From Chlorokybus atmophyticus (lineage: Eukaryota; Plantae; Mesostigma and Chlorokybus algae): a stretch of DNA of 64,000 nt. Both the position numbers and the translations under genes were made by a program. The notes beneath the pieces were generated by a model. It was not told the DNA's origin, made no database searches, and saw only the letters and a program-made list of their open reading frames with translations. Location: contig RHPI01002161.1 in assembly GCA_009103225.1 (NCBI GenBank), forward strand, positions 173,044 through 237,043, given 5' to 3'. Positions 1 to 62,619 of the stretch are shown piece by piece (the stretch's first letter is position 1; every line of letters begins with the position of its first letter).

Positions 1-699
1 TGTCATGCGCGTGCGTGTCGGTGGCGCAACGCATCGATTATGAGGGCTTTTGAGGTCATATTTCATGAGATAGAGCTGAGTTACGGTCATTACATCGCGG
101 TGTAACTCAATTACGCTGGTAGGACTCACATGTGACTGAAAATCGCTGGTTATGACTGATTTGGGAGTTGTATGGTAGTTGTGGCAGCTAAAGTGGTTAA
201 AACGGTTGTGGAGGCATGGTAGGAGGGTATGTAAGTGTTCTTGACTTGTGTTGCAGCTAGTTGAGCGCAAGTCCCTTGTTCTATTGGGAGCATACAGCTA
301 CTTGGAGAGGCCTCAACTTGCCTTGCTTGTGTGCTTGCCTTGAGTGTGCACGTGCATGGATATGCTTGTGTGAAGTGTATGAGCGTGTGCCACACCTTGC
401 GAACGGACTTAGCCTCATCTCCCCGTGCATCACATGCCAATTGCAAGTATAAAAGCCCGTGCTTGAGTCTAGGTTGGCTAAGACACGCGCTTGTTACTGT
501 AATGTAATACGCGCTTGTTGTGAGTGTTGTGTCATGTGTATGAGTATGTACACTAGTGGGGCAGCTTCGGGAGGATCCTGAGCTAGCAGACATGCATGGA
601 GGAAGCTACAACATGTGAAGGTGGAAAAGGTGCAGCATGATGAGGCCATGACGAGCTGGTGGACGACATCCTCGCGCAACGATAGGATTTGGCACGACA
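1..699 (+). mobile_element. LTR-like unit, copy 1 of a tandem array
   Basis: Starts TGTCATGC and ends GCACGACA (TG...CA with 7/8 inverted termini); TATAAAAG at 448-455; near-identical to 702-1414. The 5' end coincides with the window edge. Confidence 0.65.
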
Positions 700-1897: not shown

Positions 1898-4800
1898 CGC
1901 CACCACCACCGCCTCCCTCGCCCCCGCCCCTATTGCCTTCACCGCCTCCAACACCACCTCTACCACCTCCATCCCCGCCGCCTCCTCCTCCTCCCCGTCC
2001 TCCGCCATCACCTCCCCCACCTTCTCCACCTCCAAAACCTCCTCCTCCACCACCAAGTGTCAAAGCTCCAGCTCCGGCTCCACCACCTACGCCTTCTCCG
2101 CCGCCTTCACTTCCGCCACCTGTGTGGTTATGTCCCGCGGGGTGAGTAAGTGGTGATATGCTACATTATATTGGCACATGTGAATTTGCTTGACTAAAGT
2201 GACTTACTGTTGTTGCATGTGCAGTTACAACGTCGCTGCGACCATGTTCCTCATTACCGACGACTGGTGTCAGTACAACATTACTTATAACGCTCCTCAA
2301 AGTGGACACTACTTAGCTGTAATTTGGACCAAAACCAAGGAATCAGGGCGGAGCTACAGTGCACATCAGAGGTTTGCTTCTTTCCAACCACCTGATGAAT
2401 GCATGTACTGGCTACTATGTGTGCCTGATAATTAACATGGCATTTATGCACATGTAGCCGTTGATAACTCTGACAAGTGGGAAGTTGATGCCTTTTCGTC
2501 CAATATAGTGGTTGGCAATACTATGAAGTTCCATTTTGTCGTCGACGACAGCTTCGGCCTCACGGAACATGATGCTTCCGACATTACCTTTACGTTCACT
2601 GAGGTTTTTTCACCTCCAAGCCCACCGCCGCCAGTCGCACCTCTGCCATCGGAGGAGTTCGGGGGCCGCCGGCGCCTCTTAAGCATTCAGCCAATCACGA
2701 CCCATGTGGTTGACATTGTGGCTGCATCCGGTCACTACGACATTGAGTTCACTGGCTTGGTGGCAGGTTGGTACCAAGTGTACATTATGGTGCGCGGTAT
2801 TTTCCTTACAGGCATTGCCATGCCTCTTATCCTGCATGTCTCATGTGCTTTACCAAGCCCGCCTTTGCCCCGTCCTCCTCCGCCAGCTGCCCCACCCTTG
2901 CTGCCACCACCGAGCCCGTCACCGCTTCTGCTCCCTCTCACACAGGAACCATCTCCACCTCCTCTATACACGACGTCCCCACCACCACCACCGCCAGTTC
3001 GCTCACCACCTCCTGTACCACCCTCATCTCCGCCACCATCCACCTCACCTCCTCCGCCACCCGTGTCCGTACCGCAAGCCATCAAGCCCAACAACGCCAG
3101 CTTACTTACCACCGACGTTGTGCTCACACCAGCGCAAGCATCCCTCTCACTCTGTTAATCATTGGGCGCAACAGTTCAAACTTGCCAAACAGCGGTGGTG
3201 TCATCTAGGCAGTGCTATCACCAGGAGGTTTAATAGCGTTGTCCTTGCTGTACAACACTACCGCTGGCTTCTACGGCATTCAGTTCACCTCATTGACAGC
3301 AACAGGCATGTACCAGTTCACACTCACCATTGAAGGCAGCACTTTCATGTCTGGAACTTTTACCATCATCGCGGGTTCCGCCACTGCAGCTACATCTAAC
3401 ATTGAGATGCAAAGTCAGTACACTGCCGATAAGGTAGCAACACTGAAGATTGTCACCAACGATGCTTGGGGCAACCGCGTGCCACCTGCAAACACGCCAG
3501 CTTCCACTTTGAGTGCAATTTTCTCTCCGGCATTTACCTCCAGCAGCAGCATTAGCCCATCACCGGATGGCAGCTTCCTTGTGACGTTCACACCACCATC
3601 AACAGTGAGCGGCTACAGCGTAACTGCTTTATTAAATTACAGCACCATCGGCAGCACGAGCTTCACTGTCTCAACAATCTCCGCGGCCAGCAACTCTGTC
3701 CTGTTCGGCATCGGCTTAGCTGGCGGTGTTGTGGGCAAGCCGCAGTACGTCTTGATTTCACCCATAAATGGCTACAGTGTGGTTGAGAACTTCACCATCA
3801 CGCTCACGCTGAACTCAAGTGTCTCTTCAGCATCCTTGCCTTTGCCTCTGGCCTGTTGTCCAACCCGCAGGGCATCGGTGTATCTTCTCCTACAACGTGT
3901 CGGTTGTCGGCACCTATTTGTTGAAGGTAGCCATTGGCGACAACCTTGTGGGGGACAGCGCCATCAACATTGCCCATGGTGGCAGATGTGGTCACCCCCG
4001 CCGCTTCTAGCATCATCGTGCCGACATTGACAAATTACACTGCCGGCGCAGGCATAAATGCCATCGCACTTGTCTTGAAGAATGCGTACGGCAACCCCAC
4101 AACAGGCACTGGCATCAGTGTGACGTTCACTTTTTGCACCATCACTGTCTTTGGGACCACCTCCAAGCTGCCAAGCTGTGAGTGCGGTGATCACAATCAG
4201 CGGCACGTACATTGTCAATGCGTTGCATCAAGGCATGCCTTTGATTAGCTCCGGCAAGACGATCACCGTGATCCCGGCCAACCCGTCCCCTTCAGCTTCC
4301 ATTGTCAGTGGGTCCGGCACGAGGCACTGCTGGCAACATCCTCAGTGTCAATGCGTATGTATTTGATGCTTTCGGCCACGACATCGCCGTGTCTGCGCTC
4401 GATGTGAATGTGGCGGTGGTGAGAGCTGCCAACAATGCTACTACAGCCACGTCCGTCGCCACACCTCCGCCAACTGGCGCATACATCACCAGCTTCACAG
4501 TTGAAACCGTTAACGTTTATAACATCACTGTCATCGCTGGCAGCGTCCAGCTGGCCACTTTCAACATCAGAGTGTCCACGGTGGCTGTCAATGCCAGCAA
4601 GACTTTGGTTATTTGCAGCTCAATGGCCGGTCAGTCCAGCAGCTTCATTGTACAGCTGCGTGATCAGTACCTCAACAACGCAACGGCCACAGCAACGACC
4701 TTCTTCGACGGATCCTCCCTTGTGCTGCGCGGCGTGTTCACCACTGTGGGCCTGGGCGTCGCTTTGGCCATGACGCCAAGCAGTGCGGGCATGGTTGTCG

Positions 4801-7515
4801 CCACGTACATGTTGATGACTGCCGGCATTTACGACATCAAGCTTCGCATTCATGGTCAGACCATTCCAGAGCCGAGTATCCCTCTCTCTTTCACTGCCAA
4901 TGTACCAACCGCAGCCACATCCACCATGACAGTCTTCGGCCTCCCGACAGCTGGCCACGTTGGTTCCAACCTCCACGTTGGTGTCAGTATTAAAGACCTA
5001 TCCAGCAACGTTGTCTCTGGAAACGCGGTGAGTAAGACTTGTTCAACACAGGTTATTGCATGCTGATCTCCTTCCTATATATCTAACTTGAGTAACTAGT
5101 TTGCTGTTTGTGTCCTCAGAGCATTTTGACGGTTACAACGGCAATTATCTTCGGAGGTGGTGTCAACGCTGTTTCTACGCCCGTACCTGTCACATCCACA
5201 TTTAACAGCACCCTTCAGGCACACAATATCAGCATGACACCCACCCACGCCGGCACTCTCACCGTGAACATGCTCATCTCCGGCACTCCTCTTACCGGCA
5301 GCCTCTTCTCAAACTAATCCAGGCGGGCGCCACCTCTGCTTCACACTCCACCCTCTACGGCTCCGGGTTGTCCGGCGGCGTGTTAAACAACTCCGCCTTA
5401 TTCATCATAAGTGCGTTTGACATTGATGGAAATATGAAGGTTACCGGCGGTGACCCCTTCCGTGTGGCAGTCACTAATGCAGCCGGCAACAAGGCTGCCA
5501 CAGTTGTTGACAATAAGGATGGGAGCTACATTGTGACGTACACGCCCACGGGGGCTGGCACCATCTCTATCGCTGTGACTCTGCTGGGACTCTGCTGGGA
5601 AGCGCTGTGGCTAACAGCCCTGTCACAGCGACTGTGTTTGAGACAGCTGGCGTCATCGACTATGCACGCACGATAGTGACGGGTGCTGGACTGGCTGGTG
5701 CTTTCGCTGGAGATCCAGCCAGCTTCATCATCATTGCAATGGATGCAAGTTCCATCAACAAACCTCTGGTGGCGCTGTCTATCAAGTCACGTCTGAGCCC
5801 GCGCTAGAGTTCATCGTGACTGACCAGCAAGACGGCTTGTATACCGTCAACTATACCCCACAGATCGCTGGCATCTACAACCTCACCAGACTTCACTGGC
5901 ACCATCAAGACTGCAAGCGTAAGAGTCATACCCGGGCCAACCTCCAATAAGCACTCCAGCCTGGTTGAGGACTTACAGCCAACGTACACTGCGAGTGAAG
6001 CCTTGTTAGTTGGTCTTAAAACTCAAGACTCGTTTGGCAACAAGCAGCAGTACTCAACCGCGTACCCTGCCGATGATGTGTTCGTGACTGCAACCAACAT
6101 TGCCGGCAGCAGTGTCGCCACTGGCACTGCAACACTCAACAACGGCCAGTACCTTGTCAACGTCTCCATTAAGGAGCTAGGCACGTTCTTGTTGAGTGTC
6201 CTCATTGGCAGTGTGGCCATCACAGGCAGCCCATTTCCCATCACAATAGTTGCTGGGCCAGTATCCCCAGCTGCCACGACACTGAGCGTAGTGATTGGAG
6301 CAGCTCCTATTGTTGCCGGCAGTCCGGGCAGTATACCACTGCTGGCCCGTGACGAGTACGGTATCCCAATGAACAGTGTGGCCCAGTGCGAGGCCACCCT
6401 CATTAACACCATCGATGATGCTGTCAAATATCTGGACTGCGACCTCCCTTCGTTGACCATCAGCTACTCTGTAGAGAAGGCTGGCACATGCGAGCTTGAG
6501 GTGCGGGTGTCAAGCAATGAAACAGGCAATTCGGCACCGATCAAGGGCAGTCCATTCGCCGGCTTCAAGGTGGTACCGGCAGATCCCGATGTTGAGAGCT
6601 GCACAGTTAGTGGCGATGGCTTGGATTCTGCTATTGCGGGCGCCGTCGGCAACAGCATCCCCGTATCCGATACGGGAAGCTGCCAAGTCTTATACACTGT
6701 CTTCAATGCCAGCACGGCTACTGGCACCATCTTGTATGACGGAGTCATCACCAACGGCCAGTTCACAGCACAGATTGTTAGTATTGCTGGCCCGCCTGAC
6801 GCAGGGCAGTCCATTGCCACGGGTTCCGCCCTCAACAGCGTCGCCATTGCGGGGGAGAGTGTGATTGGATTCATCAGCCTGCATAATGTACAGGGCATTG
6901 CCATCAATATCAGCTATGGCGCTGACTTCGTGTCTGCGCTTGTCGCGCGTGACTCCGACGGCCTGCAGGTCTCTCAGCAGGTTGATAACAATGACGATGG
7001 CATGTATACTCTGAGCTTCACTGCCGTCAGCACGGGCGTGTACTCAGTGAGACCTCTCATTGATGGTGCCGCGCTCGGAGGCATGAACAAATCCTTCACC
7101 AACACCAACATGACGTGCGTCACGACAACCGCGCAGGTGTCAACTTCTCCTGGCAGCTACATTTTGGCTGGCTCGCCAATGACAATTACAATCACACCGA
7201 TTGATAGCTGTAGCAATGTCCAGGACAGAGTGGTCAGCAACGCGGACTTTACAGCATTGATTTTTCTTCTATTGCCACGGGCCAGTTGAATTGGCATGGA
7301 ATGCAAGCGCATCCCTACTGGACGCCAAGACGCTGTCCGGACTTTACAGCATTGATTTTTCTTCTATTGCCACGGGCCAGCCAGTTGAACTGGCATGGAA
7401 TGCAAGCGCATCCCTACTGGACGCCAAGACGCTGTCCGGCTCAGTGACACTATGCACACCGGGCAAGTATGTTGCATCCGTCACGCTTGAGAACATCAGC
7501 ACTTCAGAACATTAA
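1898..7515 (+). pseudogene. Large Pro-rich (SPPP-type) filamin/Ig-like repeat protein, frame-disrupted; 5' end lies in the gap
   Basis: Filamin-type motifs: VVDNKDGSYIVTYTP, TDQQDGLYTVNYTPQIAGIYNL, VDNNDDGMYTLSFTA..TGVYSV, GSPF. SPPP tracts at 1898-2120 and 2600-3070. GT-AG introns (2142-2224, ~2372-2457, ~5029-5120). Reading frame switches repeatedly, with an in-frame TAG at 3206. Confidence 0.8.
7243..7440 (+). repeat. Tandem duplication (~95 bp unit, second copy has an extra CCAG) inside the filamin-repeat pseudogene
   Basis: CGGACTTTACAGCATTG...GACGCTGTC occurs at 7243-7337 and again from 7338. Confidence 0.9.
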
Positions 7516-7521
7516 AGGGCA

Positions 7522-8351
7522 ATGCTCTTGCTTCAGAGCAGGGCGTGCGTGCCGAGTCATCGCCATTGAATATGAAAGACTATGCCATAAGACCTTACCT
7601 GCAGTGAGTGGACTTGATTATGGCATAATGCAAAGGTGTCCGACAACAAACGCAAGTTTGTCAAGACCGTTATTGCCTTCTTCGCCGCCAGCAACGGCAT
7701 CGTCGCAGGCAACCTCGTGAGGCCTTCTACGCGTACCGAATGTTCAACGAGACCGTGCACTTCAACACGTACAGCCTGATCATCGATACCTTGATGCACG
7801 ATGCAACAGAGCAGCGGCGCCTGTTCACTGCCATAGAGACGGACCATCCCATCAAGAAGGCGGGATGGGCGCTGCGCTGTATGGCGCCAGAACAACCGTT
7901 CGCCCACCGCCTCATGGCGTTCGCCTGCTCCGCAGCGTTCGCGGCCCTATTCTGACTGAAGAAGCGGGGCCTGTTGCCCCGGGTGACTTGCAGCAACGAG
8001 GCTACCTCCGCTTTCAAGCCGGACGCTTTGATTGTACAGGAAATTGTCTCGAGTGCAGTGGAAGCCGAGCTCACATTCGTCCGCGAGCCGCTACCTCAGC
8101 ACCTCGTTGGGATGAACGCCAAGACCATGGGGGAGTACGTGCGCTTCGTCGTACAGGCTGCTCGTCCCCAATTCGGCTACGAGTGCAAATACAGCGCCAA
8201 GAACCCCTTCGATTTTATGGAGGCTATAGGGTTGCAGCGCAAGACGAGCTGTTTCAAGAGGAGGATTGGGGATTACGCCAGGGCTTGCGACGTATCAAAG
8301 CCGTTCGACATGGTGTTCAATATTAAAACAGAAATGTTGCTATGTGGTTGA
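7522..8351 (+). pseudogene. Ribonucleotide reductase small subunit (class Ia R2), probably viral, inactivated
   Basis: RKFVKTVIAFFAASNGIVAGNL; NETVHFNTYSLIIDT; KKAGWALR; F*LKKRGLLP..TCSNE; MNAKTMGEYVRFV; KNPFDFMEAIGLQRKTSCFKRRIGDY. The ASDG aspartate reads N, the EGIFF and RDEGLH iron-ligand segments are missing, and there are stops and frameshifts. Start is approximate. Confidence 0.9.
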
Positions 8352-8408
8352 GCGCAATCTTGTTGCAACGGAAATGCAGTGCCGCACAAGCTCTTTTCCT
8401 AATGATGA

Positions 8409-8612
8409 ATGGAAGCGGATCTTGTTCACATGTGTTTCAAAACCCCGTGCATCATATTCTTTGTACAATGCCTCCGAGATGCTTTCCATGGTATGAAGAG
8501 CATGGCTCTCGCGTTGCTCGGGCTGGGGTTGGTCAAGGGTAGCAAGCAGAAGACTCTAGTCAACACGTACCAATACCTGGCGGAGCAAACACTCAGTTTT
8601 TCGGCAAGCTAA
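8409..8612 (+). CDS. Small hypothetical ORF within the viral block (67 aa), may be a remnant
   Basis: Fills the gap between RNR and the L1R-like gene; ends 5 nt before the ATG at 8618. No recognisable family. Confidence 0.3.
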   Translation: MEADLVHMCFKTPCIIFFVQCLRDAFHGMKSMALALLGLGLVKGSKQKTLVNTYQYLAEQTLSFSAS

Positions 8613-8617
8613 TCAAC

Positions 8618-9404
8618 ATGTGCGAGTCCCATGGCTCGACCACCCTTGATCAAATAGTTGCGGCCGGCGACACCGCCACGCAGCTGAAGTGCTTGCAGGT
8701 GGTACAGAAGTGTTTGTCGGGCCTCACGGGTGCCTCCTTGCAAGCGGCCCTCGATTCTTGCAAGGTCCACGACAACTCTATATCCATCTAATGTCACGCA
8801 GACCGGCACTTGAATCATAACCAGTTCTTGCCACATGACCAACGCTATGACCCAAGGCCTGGTCAACAGCTTCACCAATACGGTGCAGCAGAAGATGCAG
8901 TTGTCCACCGACGTGGTGTCCAACGACCGGTTCAACGCCATGGCGTCCGTGCTAGGCGGCAAGAAGACGACATTTACCGTCGACAACATGGACATTGAAA
9001 ACGTCCCAAATACCATGTATACGGTGGACAACGTCAACAAGTTCCTGAGCGAGATGTCTCAGAGCATGAACCAGCAGGTGTCCACTGGTTCTGCGACAGC
9101 TGCACCATTACGGACATTGTGTAGCAGACGCAAATCAACGCTATGGGCGAGATGGTCGTGTCCAACAACTTTTTCCAAACCGCGGTGGTGCAGTTCGCTC
9201 AGACGCTGTCGCATAATAGCAGAACGAAGAGAAGGGGATAATCTCGTCTCTGAACAACCTGTGCAGCGAGCTAACGAGCCCGTGGGTCATGCTGGCGGTG
9301 ACATGCATCGCATGCCTAGTGCTCGTTGTGGTCCTGTTGTACTTCAAAAACCGGGGCGGGGGCAAGACGTCCTTATTTCTTGCGGTGCATGTAGCGGCTC
9401 ATAA
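8618..9404 (+). pseudogene. NCLDV L1R/F9L-like (myristoylated) virion membrane protein, frame-disrupted
   Basis: Reconstruction across frames: MCESHGST...ISI/NVTQTGT*IITSSCHMTNAMTQGLVNSFTNTVQQKM...CDSCTITDIV*QTQINAM...GIISSLNNLCSELTSPW-MLAVTCIACLVLVVVLLYFK-NRGGG. This is an N/Q/T-rich ectodomain with sparse Cys and a C-terminal TM helix. Codon 2 is TGC, one base from GGC (Gly2 myristoylation site). Confidence 0.65.
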
Positions 9405-10823
9405 TGGTGGTGGGGGAAACGGTTTTTGGGCCGTTCGGGGCCAAGGCGGCTTAGGCGAACTCGCACGCCCTCATCAGCTGCAATCTCAATTATTACGTAA
9501 CCGCTGCGGCGGGCGTGTCTGGAGACGCGATTGATGGGATCACGTTGGTGACGTGCAAGAACGCCATGACCGGCCATGGTGACTATAACCGACACGACTC
9601 TGAGCACGAGCACTGGTGGCAAGACGCCCACGAGCTTCATGTGCCCGACGGGCTACGACGCCCTCAACTGCTTCCTGCTTGGCGCCGGCGACGATGTTAT
9701 GTTGCTCCGCTCGGTGTGCCGCAAGTGGAACAGCACCGGCCTTGCCGCATTAAACATGCCCAACTCTGCGATTGGCAACAAGGCCGGGATGAACTCGCAG
9801 GTGTGCGCCGGCGCGAACAATGCAATCTATGCGCTGGACGGCAACGCTCGGGACCGCAAGGGGACGCTGGTTAACAGGTGGTTCCTTTGCAGCGACTTGG
9901 GCCCGGTGCGGCGCTTCATAAACAACACGAGCGCTCAGGCCGCGTGCTCTGGGGTGGACCAGTCGCAGGAGTGCAAGGACGCCAAAAATTAATTAGGCAT
10001 GTTTCAATGCCCCCACACTATGGCCACGTGGTGCACCAAGGCGAATGCGGCCACCGACCCTTGGTGCCAGCGCTATTACAAGATTGTAGGGTTCGGCGAC
10101 CCGGACCTGCAAAGGCGCTGATCACGGGCGACGACTTGTTGTGCTGGCAAGGCGACAACTGGGCGGCCAACGCCATGTGTCAGGACGTGTGTTCCTTCCC
10201 GGTCGGGGACAAGGCGTACGGCTCTGTGGTCAAGGAGCGCTGCAATTGAAAGTCCTATCGGCCTGCAGCGGTGATAACTCCACCAGGCTGGATGCGTGCT
10301 ATTGCCCGTGCCAGGAGAGCGACATTACGGCGTTCGTCAAGATCCGAGAAGTCATGCCCCAGGCCATTTTCAACAATAAACCCCAATGCTCCATTAAGAG
10401 TGCGTCGATTTGGATTACCAGATGCGGACGTCGCAGAAGCGAGCTGCTTGTCAGGTCAACCAGTACGTTATGGCGAACGACCCCAATGACAGCACCATTC
10501 ATGACGTGTTCACCACATGCGACTCCACTGCCAACGCCTCAACTGATGGCAGTGAATCGACAGGCAGCAGCGCTGCTACCGCGAGCGCTGATGTGAGCCA
10601 GACGATGCCCTCGAGCGTTGCGACGCCGCAAACGCCGGTAACGCCGCCGCCGCCACCAACAACGACGCTGATGAGCTTGTTTGCGAGCTGGAAGTTGTGG
10701 CATTGGGCCTTGCTTGCCGGCATCAGCGTCGTCATGCTGATTGCAATGATATTCATGCCCCAGAATCGGGGAGGTCGCAACTCTGAAGGCGGCCACGGCA
10801 ACGGCAACAACGGTGGGCGGTGA
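9404..10823 (+). pseudogene. NCLDV A16/G9/J5-like Cys-rich membrane protein with a lectin-like N-terminal domain, frame-disrupted
   Basis: WCTKANAATDPWC and CQDVC repeats, then DACYCPC-x20-KPQCSI/ECVDLDY...AACQVNQ...IHDVFTTCD, a S/T/P stalk and a C-terminal TM (LWHWALLAGISVVMLIAMIFM). Stops at 9452, 9990 and 10247 plus frameshifts. Confidence 0.7.
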
Positions 10824-10839
10824 CCTTGAGATCCGCAAC

Positions 10840-11337
10840 ATGTCACACGCCTGTCCTGTCCAGCACCCTCATGGACGATCGTGTTGATGCCTAGTGGCAG
10901 AGGGACTAGAAGGCGGGACTGGTCTGCAATGTACCAGTCTTGCGCGCGTATGCTGGTAAACATCTGCCGCAGGGTGATGGGTGAAGTTGAGCACCGCCTT
11001 GTTCAGGGCGCTGACCTGGTCCTCCAGGAAGTCAAAGCGTTGATTCCCTTTTTTTTACGTAGATCGAGCGCATGAGGATGGCGAGCACGGTCTCGTTCAG
11101 CCTGCCTATCATAGCACATGATGTCCCGCCTCAGCTACCAGCGTGTAGCACGTTTTTCGCCCCGAAAAACGCCACGATGATGACGTCGGGGGAGCAGCGC
11201 GTTGCATGCAGGGCGGAGACGACGCCCAGCTCTAGCGCTTTGGCCTGCTAGTCCGGCGCCGCGCTCGACGGCGGCGTCGTGCGGATTGGTTGCACTCGGT
11301 TGTACGACATGAAGTCGAACGCGTCAATCATTATCAT
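10840..11337 (-). pseudogene. Unidentified intronless ORF remnant in the viral block, convergent with the A16/G9-like gene
   Basis: MIMIDAFDFMSY...D*QAKALELGVVSALHATRCSPDVIIVAFFGAKNV...LNETVLAILMRSIYVKK/QRFDFLEDQVSALNKAVLNF/FTSIRAQDWYIADQSRLLVPLPLGINTIVHEG. Protein-like across two stops and frameshifts. 3' end approximate. Confidence 0.5.
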
Positions 11338-11394
11338 CTGTCTATCTGTCGGCAACAATTTTTACTCAGTAGTTTGCAGCGCAGAAATCCTCTT

Positions 11395-11482
11395 AACGAT
11401 CGTCACATCAATGTTCAATGAAAAATGAAACACTTATAATTCCACCAATTAAAAATAGCGTATATTAAAGGTATTATTAGAG
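11395..11482. promoter_or_regulatory. AT-rich segment upstream of the minus-strand viral ORF, possible relic viral promoter/intergenic DNA
   Basis: AATGAAAAATGAAACACTTATAATTCCACCAATTAAAAATAGCGTATATTAAAGGTATTATTAG, much more AT-rich than its surroundings. Confidence 0.35.
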
Positions 11483-11485
11483 CAA

Positions 11486-12025
11486 TGCTTACATCCGGTC
11501 AGCTTGCCCTTCACACAGGAGTTGAGAGTCGAAGGTACTATGGGCTGAGCACATGGACTTCGGACTTAGCCAGTCGAGACGTGTTGGAATTGTGCAAATC
11601 AGGCTGCTGACCAAGGTCTTGGGAGAATCAACGCGGCTTGATGGATACGTAGCCTTAGCAGGCGCGGGCAAGCTGTTCTGTCTAGACAACAAGCTAAGCC
11701 ACGCATATATGCTTTATGGTCGAAGGTACCATGGAAGAAGCGCGTGGACTCCAAACTTGGCAAGACATTCGAGTTAGGACGGACTCCGAAGCAGATGCTG
11801 AGTATAGCCTTGGGAGAAACCGCGTAGCTTGGTGGATACGTAAGCACAGCAAGCGTGGCCTAGCTTGTTGTAAAGCTCTGGTTGTGAGCTAGACAGCGCA
11901 GCTTACAGAACAGCAATTGGCTGAGTATGCTTGACGCGGTGCTTGCTAATGTAGACGTGTATAGAGACTGGCGGGGTATAAAGCCCGGACTTGTTGCAAT
12001 GAAGAAAAGAGGTCACGATGTAGCA
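11486..12025 (+). mobile_element. Solo LTR-like element
   Basis: Begins TGCTTACATC and ends GATGTAGCA (near-inverted TG...CA). TATAAAGCCCG at 11977-11987 resembles TATAAAAGCCCG of the 1-1414 units. Internal repeated blocks (GTCGAAGGTAC, TGGATACGTA). No matching TSD found. Confidence 0.5.
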
Positions 12026-14484
12026 TGTGTGCGGATGCTATGGCAGCGGTAGCATTCATGCTCGCGTTGTTGATGTTGTCGGCGTGTCACCTGCATGTAT
12101 GTATATCAACAGCGTATAATTGGTTAATGCACATCATCTGCTCTACACAAGTACGCCGATCGACCGTTGCCTTCTACCATCGATTTAAAAATCTTCAGAT
12201 GTTGAGGGATGCGTTCAAGTCTCACCTGTTACCCATTTTGTCTTCGCCACACGTGGCGCCAACACGCACTCGATACGAGGCAACAATGGTTATTGATAAT
12301 ATTGCAAATGCTAATCATTCCAGTTGACACACAAGTTGACATGTCGGCGCCAAAGCGCATTGCTTTTTAGCAGTATATTCAATTCCTTTACTGCAGTTGT
12401 AGTTAACACGCGCGGCATTTCGAAAGTCAATTAGTATCCACACACATTGTGAGCACAAGACATGATCGTTGCAAATCAGCCTACGCTTACCGAGGCTGCT
12501 ATTGGGTTTACCCATCATACCAAGCTTTGTTGTGCAAATCGCACTTTTGTGAAGATACCCGTTTCTGATGCATCAGCGTCTCGTGCGCACTACACTCTCC
12601 AAACTCGTATGGCACTTGAGGGTTGAAACCGATCTGTGGCACCTCAAACCATTGCCATCATTCAGATAGCCATAATACTACACTAGCCCATGAGGCACAA
12701 GACAAACAGCAAGACCAAGGGAAAGCGAACAGAACAAACTGACAAGAATTCGAGAGCATCAGCAACTGTACATAACAGTGCATGCTGAGAACATGCAAGG
12801 AGTACCAATTAGTTGATTACTCTAAGAGCACTTGCAGTCAAGTTGGTAGCAGACACATGCAAGTGGCAAAAGTAGCAACCATGTACCATACATTTGAACC
12901 TTGTAACCTGTGCGCACACAATACAAAGAGTCCTTATTCTCAGCTACTGTTACAATGAGGCATGCAGGTCTAGTTACACGCACGAGGCCAGTTCAGGGAA
13001 GGGGTGAGATGCAGACCTATTTACATGGACTGGTTGTGGGGGCTTGTGTGGCTTTTCTGGCCTGGACACAGCGAAATTGCGCTTGCGCGCTTGGCTAACT
13101 CCTCACACGCTTGAACGCAACAGCAAAAGCCGCCTGCGTCATGTAATCCAGTGCCTGGGACAACAGCACCGTTGCGGGCGACAACAGTGACGCGGTGAGT
13201 CGCTCAGGCTTGTGAGTTGGCAATAAATGCTGACAGCATATCGGTTGACCTCTAGATAGAGCAAACGCGCAGTGCAGGCAAAGTCCTCACCTTTGCTTGA
13301 CTGAGCATTATTTGTCAGCAAATTTGCTGCTCTGCTTGCATTCCTGTATGGCTTCACGATAATTGTATGCGCCGAAGATTGTAGCCACAGCCATAGCAAG
13401 CATAAACATCCACTGTGGCATTCTTGCCGCGTGCAGGCTAACCGGCACCAAACTGCTCGCTCAAAAGGGTATGTGAGACCACACATGCACGGCGGTTCAT
13501 CAAGCCAGCATTGGCAGCAGTTGTAGGGTACTTGCCTAGTGCCGTTAAGCAGCTACTTGACAAACGCTGTAACAACAGCAGCCAAAATCGGCAGGCGGCG
13601 CTGAGCTTGTAGCCAAGCGCTGCTCACCCTGTCCGCCTCCCCTTTCCGCTCCCGAGCGCCCTGCCTCCTCCCCCGCCACCTAGGCTCACAACATCCGCCG
13701 CCTCCACTAGGTTACACCACGATAGATTGTAAGATGCGCAAGACCGCACCCTGCACAACTGACAAACTGGTAATATAAAAGGTACTGACCCAACCGGCGC
13801 TATGATTGCTCGAGCGTCAAGTTGCGATGGTTGGGTACAATCGGTCAAGTTCGGTCAGTTTGTAGTTTCGGACGATGCTGCCCGACCGCGCTCAGCTATG
13901 CCCACAGCAGTGCGCGAAAAGCTTTGAATTGCGTTTGATGCTCGCTGCGGTATCTATTGTTTAAACTTGGTAAGTGCACACCATCGGGAAACGGTCACAT
14001 GTTCGTTTACGCACGGTACCTACGCATGCAGGGTATCTACGCGGTTTCCATGCATACACACGGTATCTACGCATCTGTTGGTGCACACGTGTACAGATGT
14101 GTTGGGTGTTGGAGTTGATAAGCGGTATCAGAATTCCTCTGATGCCATATCGTGCTATTAATAATCTATGTGGCTTATTCGTGTGACAGGTGGTGAGTGG
14201 ACAGGCAAGACGTGTTTGCCGGCTACCCTCTGGTGCTCTGAGAGCATTGTCAGTCAGCATCAGGCGTATCAGGTATCTGTGTGGCTTATTCGCGTGATTC
14301 GACAAGCAGCAGTACGTGTTCACCGGCTACCCTCTGGTGCTCTATGCTCTCTGAAACCTAGCGACCAAGCGACATACGATACGCACGGCAAGGAAACGCG
14401 CAGTTGCGACAACTGAGGTTTTTGTGGGCGGCGGGGTCGGCGGCGGGTGTTGGGGGTGGAAGGAGCGCCGGCCGCCTAGCTGTT

Positions 14485-31834: not shown

Positions 31835-34057
31835 TCAGAGTCCAATAACCAGAAGCTCCTCGTTGTTCAACACTGGCTCCATAGCAACTCGCAAAGCGTG
31901 CCTGCAATGAAGACGCGTGACTGTTAGCGTACATGATAATACATAATATATCCAGCGCAAAGACAATACCCTTTGCAGTGAGGCATGAGCTCTTATACGC
32001 TAAACGCTAAGTTCAATACAGCTGATGGTGAAATTAACTTACTTGTTCGCTGCGCGTGTGCGCGCCAACATCTTTGCCCCCTCTTTGGCAACCGCTGCCA
32101 GGCTGCAACAGCAGGTCAGATGCCACCCTTGAAGCACAACACAAGACGACACAATCCAGACAACCAAGTATTAGTGCCATGCAACCAATACCTTTGTACT
32201 TCCTCAATGGCGCTTCGACTAGGTGCAGATTTGTTTTCACCAGCAGCAAAGCTGCCGTATGCATCACTACGGTTGGAATGTCCTGAACTGTGCGGCTCTT
32301 CCTGCTTTCTAATGTCATCTCGTGGCAAAACACGGCGGATGTCTTCTGGTAACTCATCTTGAAGACTAGACAGCAACTCTGCACAACACTTGTACGCATG
32401 ACGCGCGGGATTGGCATACACCACAGCCAGCAGAGCAACTTGTCACAGTTGCACGCACCTTGTGGGTTGGCATTGAGCAGTGCATTTTGGTAGAATGCTT
32501 CAAGGGAAGGACCACCACTGGCAGATGCATCCTGCTGCGCATTTCGGCTGCTTGCAACCACAGCGCTGGCTTCTTTCTTGCGATACTGCAGCTCTGCTGT
32601 GACTGCGGCAATGACGCTGTCCAGATCTGCGGCGCTGTTGGTGCGGTATGTCAAGGTTGTTCACACGGCATCACATGCACTGGTTCAGTCAGCAGATAAT
32701 GGCAATACTCAAATGCATGTATTGTGAGACAGAACAGCATAAGGATACAGCTGGCTGACAGAGGCAGACTCATCGTACTCCAACTGCGCGCGAGGGTCGT
32801 GTGCTTTGCACTCTGCATCGCCGCCTCTCAGCGACACTTCAGCTGCCAGTTGCTCATCCAATGCACTCTCCTGCCCACCAATGGCATGCATGAGAAATGA
32901 TGCGAGATTGCATCATCGTTGTGCGCTGTGAGTCAACCTCAACAACTTACCATCCAGCGCCAGAAGACTTCCATGTGCTGCGTGCCTTCGGCAGCGCTGA
33001 CTTGCCCTCCTTGCACTTGCTCCAGTGCTGTAATGTGCGCCTGCAACAACAGGAAGCCATTGTGTCACCCATGCACAAAGGAGGGTCCTCATGCAGCCAA
33101 CAATAGCTGTGGTCAACACTAACTGTTTGGTTTGAACACACTTTGCCTGAAATGACTGGCTGCAAGCAGCAAGCTTGGTAAGCAAGGCTTACAGCATGCC
33201 ACACAGCATGTACACAGCTCTGTGATACTGTCTACATGCTGTGGGCATACTTGCGTGGCTTCATACAGCGCAGCTTGCAAACAGCTTCAAATGCTGTCAT
33301 GCTGCGGAGAGTGCTGGACTAACAGTACGTACCTTGAGCAGTGGAGGGTTGGTAAGAAGATGCAGTTCATAGGGCGTAAGGAAGGAGGCGGCGCTTCTAC
33401 TCCTCGGTGCGTACTCCTCGTGCAGCTGACCAGCAAGAATGCACACAACTAAGCGGTTGCATGTTCGTTGGGAACCAGTTCCAAACAGCTCGGCACCTGC
33501 GTTTGCATGGCGGATATTGCATGCAGGCGGCGCAGACGGCACGCGAGCAACATGGACAGCTGCTGCGACTTCACCTGCACCCTCCCTTTCAACATCTGAG
33601 CTGCGTGCATGCGCAAGCCTGCCTGCACAAGGTAAGCATGAGACTTGCTGACAATGGCTTCATGCTTGATGCAAGCAATGTCAAGGGCAACATATGACAG
33701 TCATGACACAAAGAGCAGCAAACACACGCACACATGGACAGGCATGCACATGCACCTTCTCAGTGTGACGTGCATGAGAGCCCAGTCTCTGCGCGTCCCG
33801 CACATATGCCGCAGCAGCACTCGCAGCTGCACCGGCGGCTTTAAGAGCTTCGGTGCTCTCGTACATGTCTTCAGGGTAAGGCGGGAGCATCCCCCCTGCA
33901 TTGCCTTGTGCACGGGCCTCATTGGAGGTTTGTTGTTGCTGTTGCGGCAAAGCCTTTCCGAGCAGATTCGTGCGCGAAAACAACCATCCCAAAGCTAACA
34001 GAATCTCCCTATCCAAGAGATATGCACACAAGAGTACCTTAGCATTCGGTATATACA

Positions 34058-34138
<81 letters not shown>

Positions 34139-61225: not shown

Positions 61226-62619
61226 CTACTTGCCCATCATCATCTTCTCAACCAGTTGGGGTCCATAGTTCTTCATGAGGTACTGCAAGGCGGCCTGTTT
61301 GGCCTGGGCGACCATACCATCATCATCTGCTTTGTCATCTTTCACCTGACAGAAGTTGACAAGAGCAGCTTAGTCTCCATCAATAACACGAGTAAAACAA
61401 CATCAACATGGACAGTCCAACAAGTGTTGATGGTTGCGTTGTAATCTCACCGCAGTCGCAGTAGAGTGCCCGTACTTCTCCTTGATGAAGTCCATGAACT
61501 CCCCTTCCAGACCACCCATGGAAGAAGGCTTGACCGCAGCGGCCTCGTGCAGCTTGTCATCCTTCACATCACCTTTGTCATTGAAGAACGACATGATCGC
61601 GCCCGCAAGACCACCCTGCGTCTGTTGTTGGACAAAACAGTCAGTCGTAAGCCTTATTTACAATGACACTGGTTGTTCTATGTCAAGTGGCATGGTGTCT
61701 TGTGTGCACTGCCGTGTGCGATACTGTATGTATGCGGGTGCGTGTGCAAGTGTGTCGAAGCATGCGCGCACATCTGTGAGAACATAAGTGACAGTGACAC
61801 CAACCTTGGTCTGGTTGCCATACTCAGTGGGGTTGTAGCTCGCTTGTCCTTGATATGTGCTTGGCTGCTGAACGCCAGGAGTGCCATATCCCGGACGTGA
61901 CACATATCCAGCTCCCTGCTGATACTGCCCCTCCTGCCTCCTGTAAGCCTCCTGTGGGATCTGAGACTGATATCCGAGCTCGCTGCCTCCCTGCTGATAC
62001 CCACCCTGCTGCTGGCCCTGGTACCCACTCTGAGGTGGATATCCACCCTGCTGAGCCTGATACCCACCGCTCTGCTGATATCCAGCACCTCCCTGCTGGT
62101 ATCCCGCACCTCCCTGCGGGTACTGCTGCTGGGCTTGAAAACCACTACCTCCCTGTTGGTAACCACCTTGATATCCACCGCCGCTTCCCTGTTGCTGATA
62201 TCCAGCACCTTGCTGGTAGCGGCCGGCCTCTTGTTGGCGGCCGTATCCTCCTTCTTGAACGTACTCAGCTGGGCGGCCGCCTTGACCTTGGTTATATCCT
62301 TCAGCGTATCCTTCAGATGTCTGCTGTTGTCCGTGATGATGGTGACGCCCTTCGCGCCCATATGCGCCTTCTTCTTGATACCCAGACTGCTGGCGCCCCT
62401 GTGCAGCCTCATATGTGACGCTTGGCCATGCATGCAGACGCTGAACTCAGCCATGCTCACAATGACAACAGCAAGGACAGGCATACCTACGGCCATACCA
62501 TCATGCATACCAGCATTGACCTAAGTCTTCACTCAAGCGTTTGCACTCACCTCTGAGGTGTAGTCAGAGTAGCGGGTGCCCTCACCGCTATACTGATCAC
62601 CACGCCCGTACCCAGCCAT
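61226..62619 (-). CDS. G/Y/Q-rich low-complexity protein with a short helical C-terminal domain
   Basis: MAGYGRGDQYSGEG; long exon of GYQQG-type repeats; final exons GGLAGAIMSFFNDKGD... and AKQAALQYLMKNYGPQLVEKMMGK*. The true frame differs from the ORFs listed in the track. Confidence 0.7.

Follow-up and report, generated by a model that had tools for sequence, protein, structure and literature searches.

A small decayed gene block, very likely of giant-virus origin and with a likely F9/L1-family gene, in the genome of the streptophyte alga Chlorokybus atmophyticus

Here, we report a frame-disrupted coding block of four genes at positions 7618–11340 (about 3.7 kb) in a 64,000-nucleotide stretch of the Chlorokybus atmophyticus genome (contig RHPI01002161.1, positions 173,044 to 237,043 of the forward strand). 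This whole stretch is referred to as the window, and all positions are given in its coordinates. The block is real: its four genes are decayed, share a codon signature and lie amid algal genes, and one of them is virus-specific. A viral origin is very likely, and we hold it highly probable that four giant-virus genes, now broken, were captured as one piece into a chromosome of an ancestor of the alga, with a likely L1-type and a possible A16-type gene among them. The segment is likely a small, dead giant-virus relic of a known kind carrying an unusual likely cargo. Its features are:

7618..8336, plus strand: pseudogene of the ribonucleotide reductase (RNR) small subunit R2 (PF00268); one frame change, one stop
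8499..9404, plus strand: likely F9/L1-family membrane protein pseudogene (profile match); four frame changes, two stops; third-position GC content (GC3) 0.77
9402..9406, plus strand: TAATG, whose ATG opens the Cys-rich gene
9404..10823, plus strand: Cys-rich membrane protein pseudogene, A16/G9/J5-like but unproven; four frame changes, two stops
10868..11340, minus strand: minor capsid protein P8 pseudogene (P8_CR, PF19065) in collinear pieces; two frame changes, two stops

The four genes are tightly packed, the first three on the plus strand and P8 on the minus strand, and together carry 11 frame changes and seven internal stops, making 18 breaks. Reading frames were chosen visually; in a homology-independent check, GC3 was highest in the chosen frame in 12/12 plus-strand pieces (0.71–0.89). 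GC3 is 0.75–0.79 in all four genes, compared with 0.57–0.62 in a filamin-repeat gene of the host, 0.64–0.69 in its eIF4A3 and EF-G genes and 0.76 in Exo70. The observed/expected ratio of CpG is 1.04 in the block versus 0.60–0.87 in 13/13 host windows of equal size. Introns are unnecessary for aligning R2, P8 or the L1-like gene, and splice-donor-like words occur at 0.81 per kb compared with 2.43 in host DNA at 20–64 kb; acceptor-like words showed no difference (8.1 and 8.8 per kb). The dense, frame-disrupted and intronless block described in an earlier model-made reading of the letters alone (the sequence-only reading) is thereby borne out. Its TAATG stop/start overlap stands in part: the word occurs at 7626, 8400, 8789 and 9402 and fits a gene junction at 9402 only, where the start of the Cys-rich gene overlaps the end of the adjoining L1-like gene, but a true stop-start overlap is plausible rather than shown because the last secure L1-like piece uses another frame. 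Two contigs of run X1 cover 8632–8997 without any differing letter, spanning one frame change and one stop, and these breaks therefore belong to the data of that run as well. Matches in runs X2 and X3 were confined to a low-complexity stretch.

The P8 gene is the best proof of a viral origin of the segment. To our knowledge, P8 occurs in viruses only. The gene drew attention because it resembles the minor capsid protein of giant viruses, and it was then tested with 10 prasinovirus-like seed proteins from a Pfam search and 84 seeds from a motif scan, one of which (L092) was checked and matched PF19065 at E 5.4e-37. Across all six frames of the window, the top three distinct matches were consecutive P8 pieces at 11115–10883 in three frames. 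The frameshift-aware score was 53.8 bits, against maxima of 22.6 among 146 other window pieces and 20.2 among 200 shuffles. With the seed-selecting motif masked the score was 35.2 bits (0/200 controls), and the 10 prasinovirus seeds alone, which were not picked by motif, gave 22.0 bits by a narrow margin (0/200, maximum 20.5). A further seed from a large bin (L543) also scored (0/100 controls). The window P8 was missed by plain hmmsearch with a prasinovirus-only hidden Markov model, and a GC-rich P8 motif scan found none. Like other members of PF19065, the window gene is collinear across the central region; unlike them, it is broken. The sequence-only reading had seen no capsid gene, A32 or polB, which holds for the major capsid protein (MCP), polB and A32 but has to be amended for the minor capsid protein. 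The strict definition of a giant endogenous viral element (GEVE) asks for large size with MCP, polB and A32, and within the window the segment falls short of it. A blastx search of the window against 10,758 open reading frames (ORFs) from 470 viral loci, among them a Pfam-verified MCP and VLTF3, with polB content unchecked, returned R2 only; this search sees close matches only, since it missed P8 and the membrane genes too.

The first gene matches PF00268 at E 2.5e-26 (stop read as X), which specifies the RNR of the sequence-only reading as the small subunit R2 of a class Ia enzyme, and a frameshift-aware alignment covers 7621–8336 at 263 bits. Deletions spanning 12, 6 and 12+5 columns of the profile have removed the EGIFF and DEGLH stretches with their iron-ligand motifs, and the enzyme is therefore dead. 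Relatives among the viral loci (80 + 80 loci) share 39–44% identity. The motif xNExxH is found in the window R2 and in 156/181 R2 rows (155 from viral loci, one from an unlabelled protein), and xE[NG]xH in the other 25, which include the sole fungal protein and 14 viral loci; yeast R2 is likewise of the latter type (ENIH). This viral-type motif is a lean rather than a proof because the R2 set is mostly viral by construction. In a tree of 236 aligned columns and 36 other rows, among them one eukaryote (fungal) and no plant R2, the window R2 joined the NE-type viral clade with 68, 60 and 77% support and the fungal row fell in another clade; a first tree by a quick method was uninformative (branch 4.35). 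The phylogenetic check proposed by the sequence-only reading at most leans towards a viral source, on a long branch. The combination that it had named as telling against a relic, an R2 among host R2 proteins and membrane proteins without viral matches, was not found with this weak tree and its single eukaryote. Motif scans revealed the same FNETVH motif as in the window R2 in small nucleocytoplasmic large DNA viruses (NCLDVs; L290, L297, L299 and L301), but neither these nor six like metagenome contigs (among 75) exceeded 44% identity or had neighbours resembling entry-fusion complex (EFC) genes. As a separate observation, the R2 proteins of these four giant-virus contigs are extended at the N terminus (in L297 by a glutaredoxin-like part, E 0.001), and their genes sit in a block with VLTF3, P9, P2 and RPB5; two tandem capsid genes are present in L299.

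By profile comparison, the L1-like gene, now in five pieces, most probably belongs to the F9/L1 family. A capsid motif gave 125 matches, among which L415, L422 and L431 exceed the PF02442 cut-off; L542 does so too, accounting for four of five seeds, and the fifth, L531, came in through similarity to L415 (E 6e-5) and has no Pfam match. Seeds L532 and L536–L538 were dropped as unrelated. The four-seed profile aligned to 8591–9196 at 36.6 bits (0/100 windows, 0/100 shuffles, control maximum 26.5) and, without the membrane tail, at 30.5 bits (0/130 windows, 0/100 shuffles). The five-seed profile scored 34.0 bits (control maximum 26.0) and 29.5 bits tail-less, with 0/250 and 0/280 controls. The alignment is ordered across about 190 columns, and swapping the F9/L1 and A16 profiles between the two membrane genes gave background scores. 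In single-seed tests, 0/100 controls reached L531 with and without the tail and 1/100 reached L415; BLASTP of L531 against the middle piece of the gene was not significant, and a homolog search with that piece yielded 0/81 candidates. A C-terminal membrane helix lies at 9283 (hydropathy 3.03). The L1R/F9L-family assignment of the sequence-only reading thus has moderate statistical support, clear against DNA controls and weaker against protein shuffles.

For the Cys-rich gene, we lean towards an A16/G9/J5-like protein. The protein contains 24 Cys and a Pro/Thr linker, its N-terminal part is beta-rich, and a membrane helix lies at 10704 (hydropathy 2.29); a single-sequence fold model was of low confidence (pLDDT 47.5). 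The last Cys spacings are 11-2-2-26-5-16-23 versus 8-2-22-5-17-5-23 in the seeds, and those of vaccinia J5, computed from PMC10100723, are 9-2-20-5-18-5-20. The eight-Cys J5-like pattern matches in CxC, Cx4C and the final 23-residue gap, with one Cys missing and one extra. With the tail, the three-seed A16 profile scored 31.7 bits, above all 216 controls. The likelihood of membership is raised by position, because the gene adjoins the L1-like gene. The A16/G9/J5-family assignment of the sequence-only reading could not be borne out: the Cys spacing, C-terminal helix and position agree with it, but tail-less profile scores do not exceed controls. The three to four A16 seeds are Pimascovirales-like, too few and narrow for excluding membership, and are weak in Pfam themselves (L409 E 2.6e-4, L422 E 0.015, L530 and L542 no match). 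F9/L1 and A16-like genes are adjacent also at locus L542 (1402-3410, G113), divergently arranged in a 181-kb record with direct terminal repeats. The beta-rich part (9452–9900) gave an Atlas lead at 0.75 to a cluster with 10% PCSK9_C1; it may have a lectin-like fold and could be a glycan-binding add-on for the algal surface.

Several results weigh against the reading as four captured giant-virus genes. The GC3 of the block is not distinct from that of every host gene, as Exo70 shows, and run X1 is possibly the assembly's own sample. Best R2 identities are flat at about 35–48% (38–44% by BLAST), and the R2 tree is weak, with its long branch and supports of 60–77. The P8 seed L544, from a large bin, gave no signal (56/100 controls). 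For the L1-like gene, the shuffled read-through protein equalled or exceeded the score in 4–17 of 500 cases, HMMER shuffles did so in 1/999 with one profile and in 41/1000 and 206/999 with the other, and no N-terminal MG myristoylation motif was found in the read-through, whose 5' end is decayed. For the Cys-rich gene, the three-seed profile without the tail was at control level (22/160 and 4/100), the four-seed profile was not significant (56/160), a glocal test was reached by 119/500 shuffles compared with 0/500 for a true member, and pairwise tests, which a true member passes easily, were not significant either. Neither membrane gene has a match in Pfam, NCBIfam, PDB, Atlas or BFVD.

These gaps bear on an alternative that we regard as unlikely, namely that the segment is viral but its membrane genes encode other Cys-rich or low-complexity virion membrane proteins, the donor being an ordinary algal giant virus. 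The missing library matches, the non-significant A16 tests and an L1 signal at only about 1–3% under protein shuffles are in its favour, as is the occurrence of P8 in prasinovirus-like and Imitervirales-like genomes and in 0/3 genomes that supplied EFC seeds. It is opposed by an L1 profile that runs in order over about 190 columns and beats all DNA controls, tail-less too, by the background level of the cross-tests and by the terminal Cys spacing (2..26-5-16-23 versus 2-22-5-17-5-23 in the seeds). Pfam also misses true family members (L531, L530 and the A16-like gene of L542). Direct searches of Pfam, NCBIfam, PDB sequences and related loci with the membrane genes and P8 gave nothing. PF03003 and PF02442 stayed below cut-off in all viral genomes of the Pfam-based searches, so that blanks for these two families carry little weight. 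A HMMER search against 1.84 billion representatives returned four matches only, all repeat-protein artefacts, and a TAL-repeat match in PDB was rejected as the sum of 23 stretches of <8 bits each. Atlas gave two leads at 0.75 in one search, including the one mentioned above, and none in another. Two weak matches of window pieces to large giant-virus bins proved not to be homologs on inspection of L406, and no close relative of the segment was found among the viral contigs reached. On some of these contigs (L443 and L476–L478), the capsid N-terminal motif is matched three times in tandem at intervals of about 1.75 kb.

The surroundings of the segment comprise the following features:

2226..7289, plus strand: filamin/Ig-repeat host gene of the left flank (Pfam Filamin E 9.7e-15, Ig_GEX2_N E 1.9e-6)
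7243..7439, no strand: tandem duplication of about 98 bp, candidate junction scar (blastn 95% over 102 nt; repeats D2 and D3)
11341..11484, minus strand: AT-rich stretch of 144 bp upstream of P8, GC 0.33 (by composition)
11485..12100, no strand: high-copy host repeat of the right flank with a 191-bp internal period (by depth; repeats D1 and D4)

Intron-split host genes in the window are Exo70, kinesin, TEDC1, EF-G and eIF4A3, as identified by Pfam in 150 ORFs from the 163 listed, the 150 including one left-flank addition. One exon of Exo70 matches a EukProt entry with the label jgi/Chlat1 at 100% identity; we take this label to mean Chlorokybus atmophyticus, a streptophyte alga. Host genes thus share the scaffold with the block, and the P8 pseudogene, the viral-type R2 motif and this Exo70 match together uphold the giant-virus fossil in a green-lineage host that the sequence-only reading had proposed. 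The filamin-repeat gene has GT–AG introns yet many frame breaks (read by eye) and ends inside the duplication; it is probably a pseudogene of the host that decays next to the viral segment, so that decay is not limited to the viral part. It also has Pro-rich stretches and a GEX2-like Ig domain. The AT-rich stretch is possibly a viral promoter region. The right-flank repeat, possibly a non-autonomous element, reaches a depth of up to 146 in run X1, compared with about 3–5 for single-copy pieces; it contains a 19-bp inverted pair (11686–11704 and 11853–11871), and X1 contigs skip 194 and 232 bp of it. A search of 6800–12600 revealed neither long terminal nor target-site repeats, and no integrase or terminal repeat was seen at the segment. 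Farther along the window, a TEDC1 (tubulin epsilon/delta complex) exon at 33684–34136 (minus strand) lies beside a CT microsatellite and an N gap, and its presence is in keeping with a flagellate stage; a Gly/Gln/Tyr-rich low-complexity exon without Pfam match is located at 61658–62446 (minus strand).

The block could also be real viral DNA of a second organism in the culture (an amoeba with its own viral relic, for instance) that was misplaced in scaffolding; we consider this very improbable. No listed X1 contig bridges either junction, which counts against the reading as a chromosomal capture, both edges are repeats of a kind prone to error in short-read assemblies, and viruses of amoebae and animals are the typical carriers of EFC genes (PMC10100723). 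However, no N gap is present between 1897 and 14566, X1 depth is equal for viral (4.1 and 5.1) and host contigs (3.1–5.4), all of which match without a differing letter, 18 breaks are not expected in a free virus, and the neighbouring host gene is decayed likewise. A decayed host cluster, in which a retrocopy of host R2 sits beside host membrane proteins, is scarcely credible: R2 is about as near to yeast (135 bits) as to viral proteins, its tree is weak and the host gene next to the block is itself a pseudogene, but the P8 scores already largely refute it, with P8 matched in 0/14 control prokaryote genomes at E 0.001, and the viral-type R2 motif, tight head-to-tail packing, common GC3 and high CpG speak against it too.

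A single capture of giant-virus DNA thus remains the favoured explanation, and its course may be sketched. The two adjacent membrane proteins would have served the donor virus as a minimal entry-fusion pair of pox-like type, with P8 lining its capsid. A cell may have survived infection, perhaps as a wall-less scaly zoospore; the terrestrial streptophyte Chlorokybus grows as walled cell packets and occasionally forms scaly zoospores (PMC7027972). A fragment of viral DNA may then have been joined into a chromosome break through host repair. The captured piece would never have been useful to the host and was probably silenced; methylation enrichment on viral genes is described for Klebsormidium and Physcomitrium in the accessible text of PMC12344493. 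Neutral decay by small indels and stops would have followed, keeping viral codon bias and CpG content, and the high CpG of the block shows no strong CpG erosion. No functional protein would be made from the segment now. The capture route, the silencing and the zoospore step are inferences, which counts against the reading as well.

As for the donor, P8 was present in 2/2 large Mimiviridae-like bins, and P8 combined with an entry pair hints weakly at an Imitervirales-like or medusavirus-like virus from a lineage absent from the viral contigs reached. P8 seeds of Imitervirales type scored 28 bits versus 11 bits for prasinovirus seeds, but this preference is circular because the former were chosen by motif. 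We propose tentatively, at somewhat less than even chances, that an unsampled giant-virus lineage with both the F9/L1 and A16/G9/J5 proteins and an Imitervirales-type capsid infected a streptophyte alga. If this is true, the published rule by which the pair is absent from algal giant viruses would no longer hold, the pair would mark amoeba or animal hosts less reliably, and fusion entry into wall-less zoospores would be suggested. The piece is small and dead, streptophyte relics are already known, and DNA capture is no proof of productive infection. A fossil with entry-fusion genes in a deep-branching streptophyte would nevertheless be a counter-example that makes the host-marker rule testable in algal relics, and it would record an infection, near the land-plant root, by a virus without close relative among the contigs reached.

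Giant endogenous viral elements of green algae were reportedly described by Moniruzzaman in 2020. Like these, the window segment consists of Nucleocytoviricota genes inside an algal nuclear scaffold; it differs in being only 3.7 kb long and fully decayed, in its streptophyte host, in its likely F9/L1 gene and in having no MCP, polB or A32 in its surroundings within the 64-kb window. A dating study (PMC11840718, available part) includes 21 GEVEs in Imitervirales and Algavirales clades and argues from entry-fusion genes that the ancestor of the phylum infected amoebae or animals, and a host predictor (10.64898/2026.09.08.750034, available part) treats entry-fusion families as features of amoeba and animal viruses. 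Closer in host lineage are NCLDV core-gene relics of Klebsormidium, Entransia, Interfilum and Physcomitrella (PMC5294986) and 222 Megaviricetes regions in Mesostigma viride (10.1101/2025.04.19.649669), Mesostigma being the sister genus. Both reports are core-gene based, and the accessible portions of their main texts mention neither entry-fusion genes nor Chlorokybus. Since giant-virus relics are known in streptophytes such as Klebsormidium and Mesostigma, the element is not of a new kind. Our literature search, which did not extend to subscription papers (the 2020 GEVE paper among them), found no Chlorokybus viral relic and no entry-fusion gene in an algal relic.

The closest comparison for the membrane genes is with the F9/L1 (PF02442, NCVOG0211) and A16/G9/J5 (PF03003, NCVOG1122) families. 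According to the available parts of Kao et al. (PMC10100723), these occur in no isolated alga-infecting giant virus and are often adjacent genes; the same parts, supplements included, have no Chlorokybus, Klebsormidium, Chlamydomonas or Physcomitrella entry. The window genes differ from these families in that no MG start was found, one J5-type Cys is missing, an extra beta-rich N-terminal part is present, the A16 similarity is not significant and the location is an alga. They agree with them in adjacency and C-terminal helices, in the profile match of the L1-like gene and, in part, in J5-like Cys spacing. The interest of the segment lies in its gene set, which includes what is likely an entry gene for membrane fusion; genes of this type have so far been found in no cultured alga-infecting giant virus.

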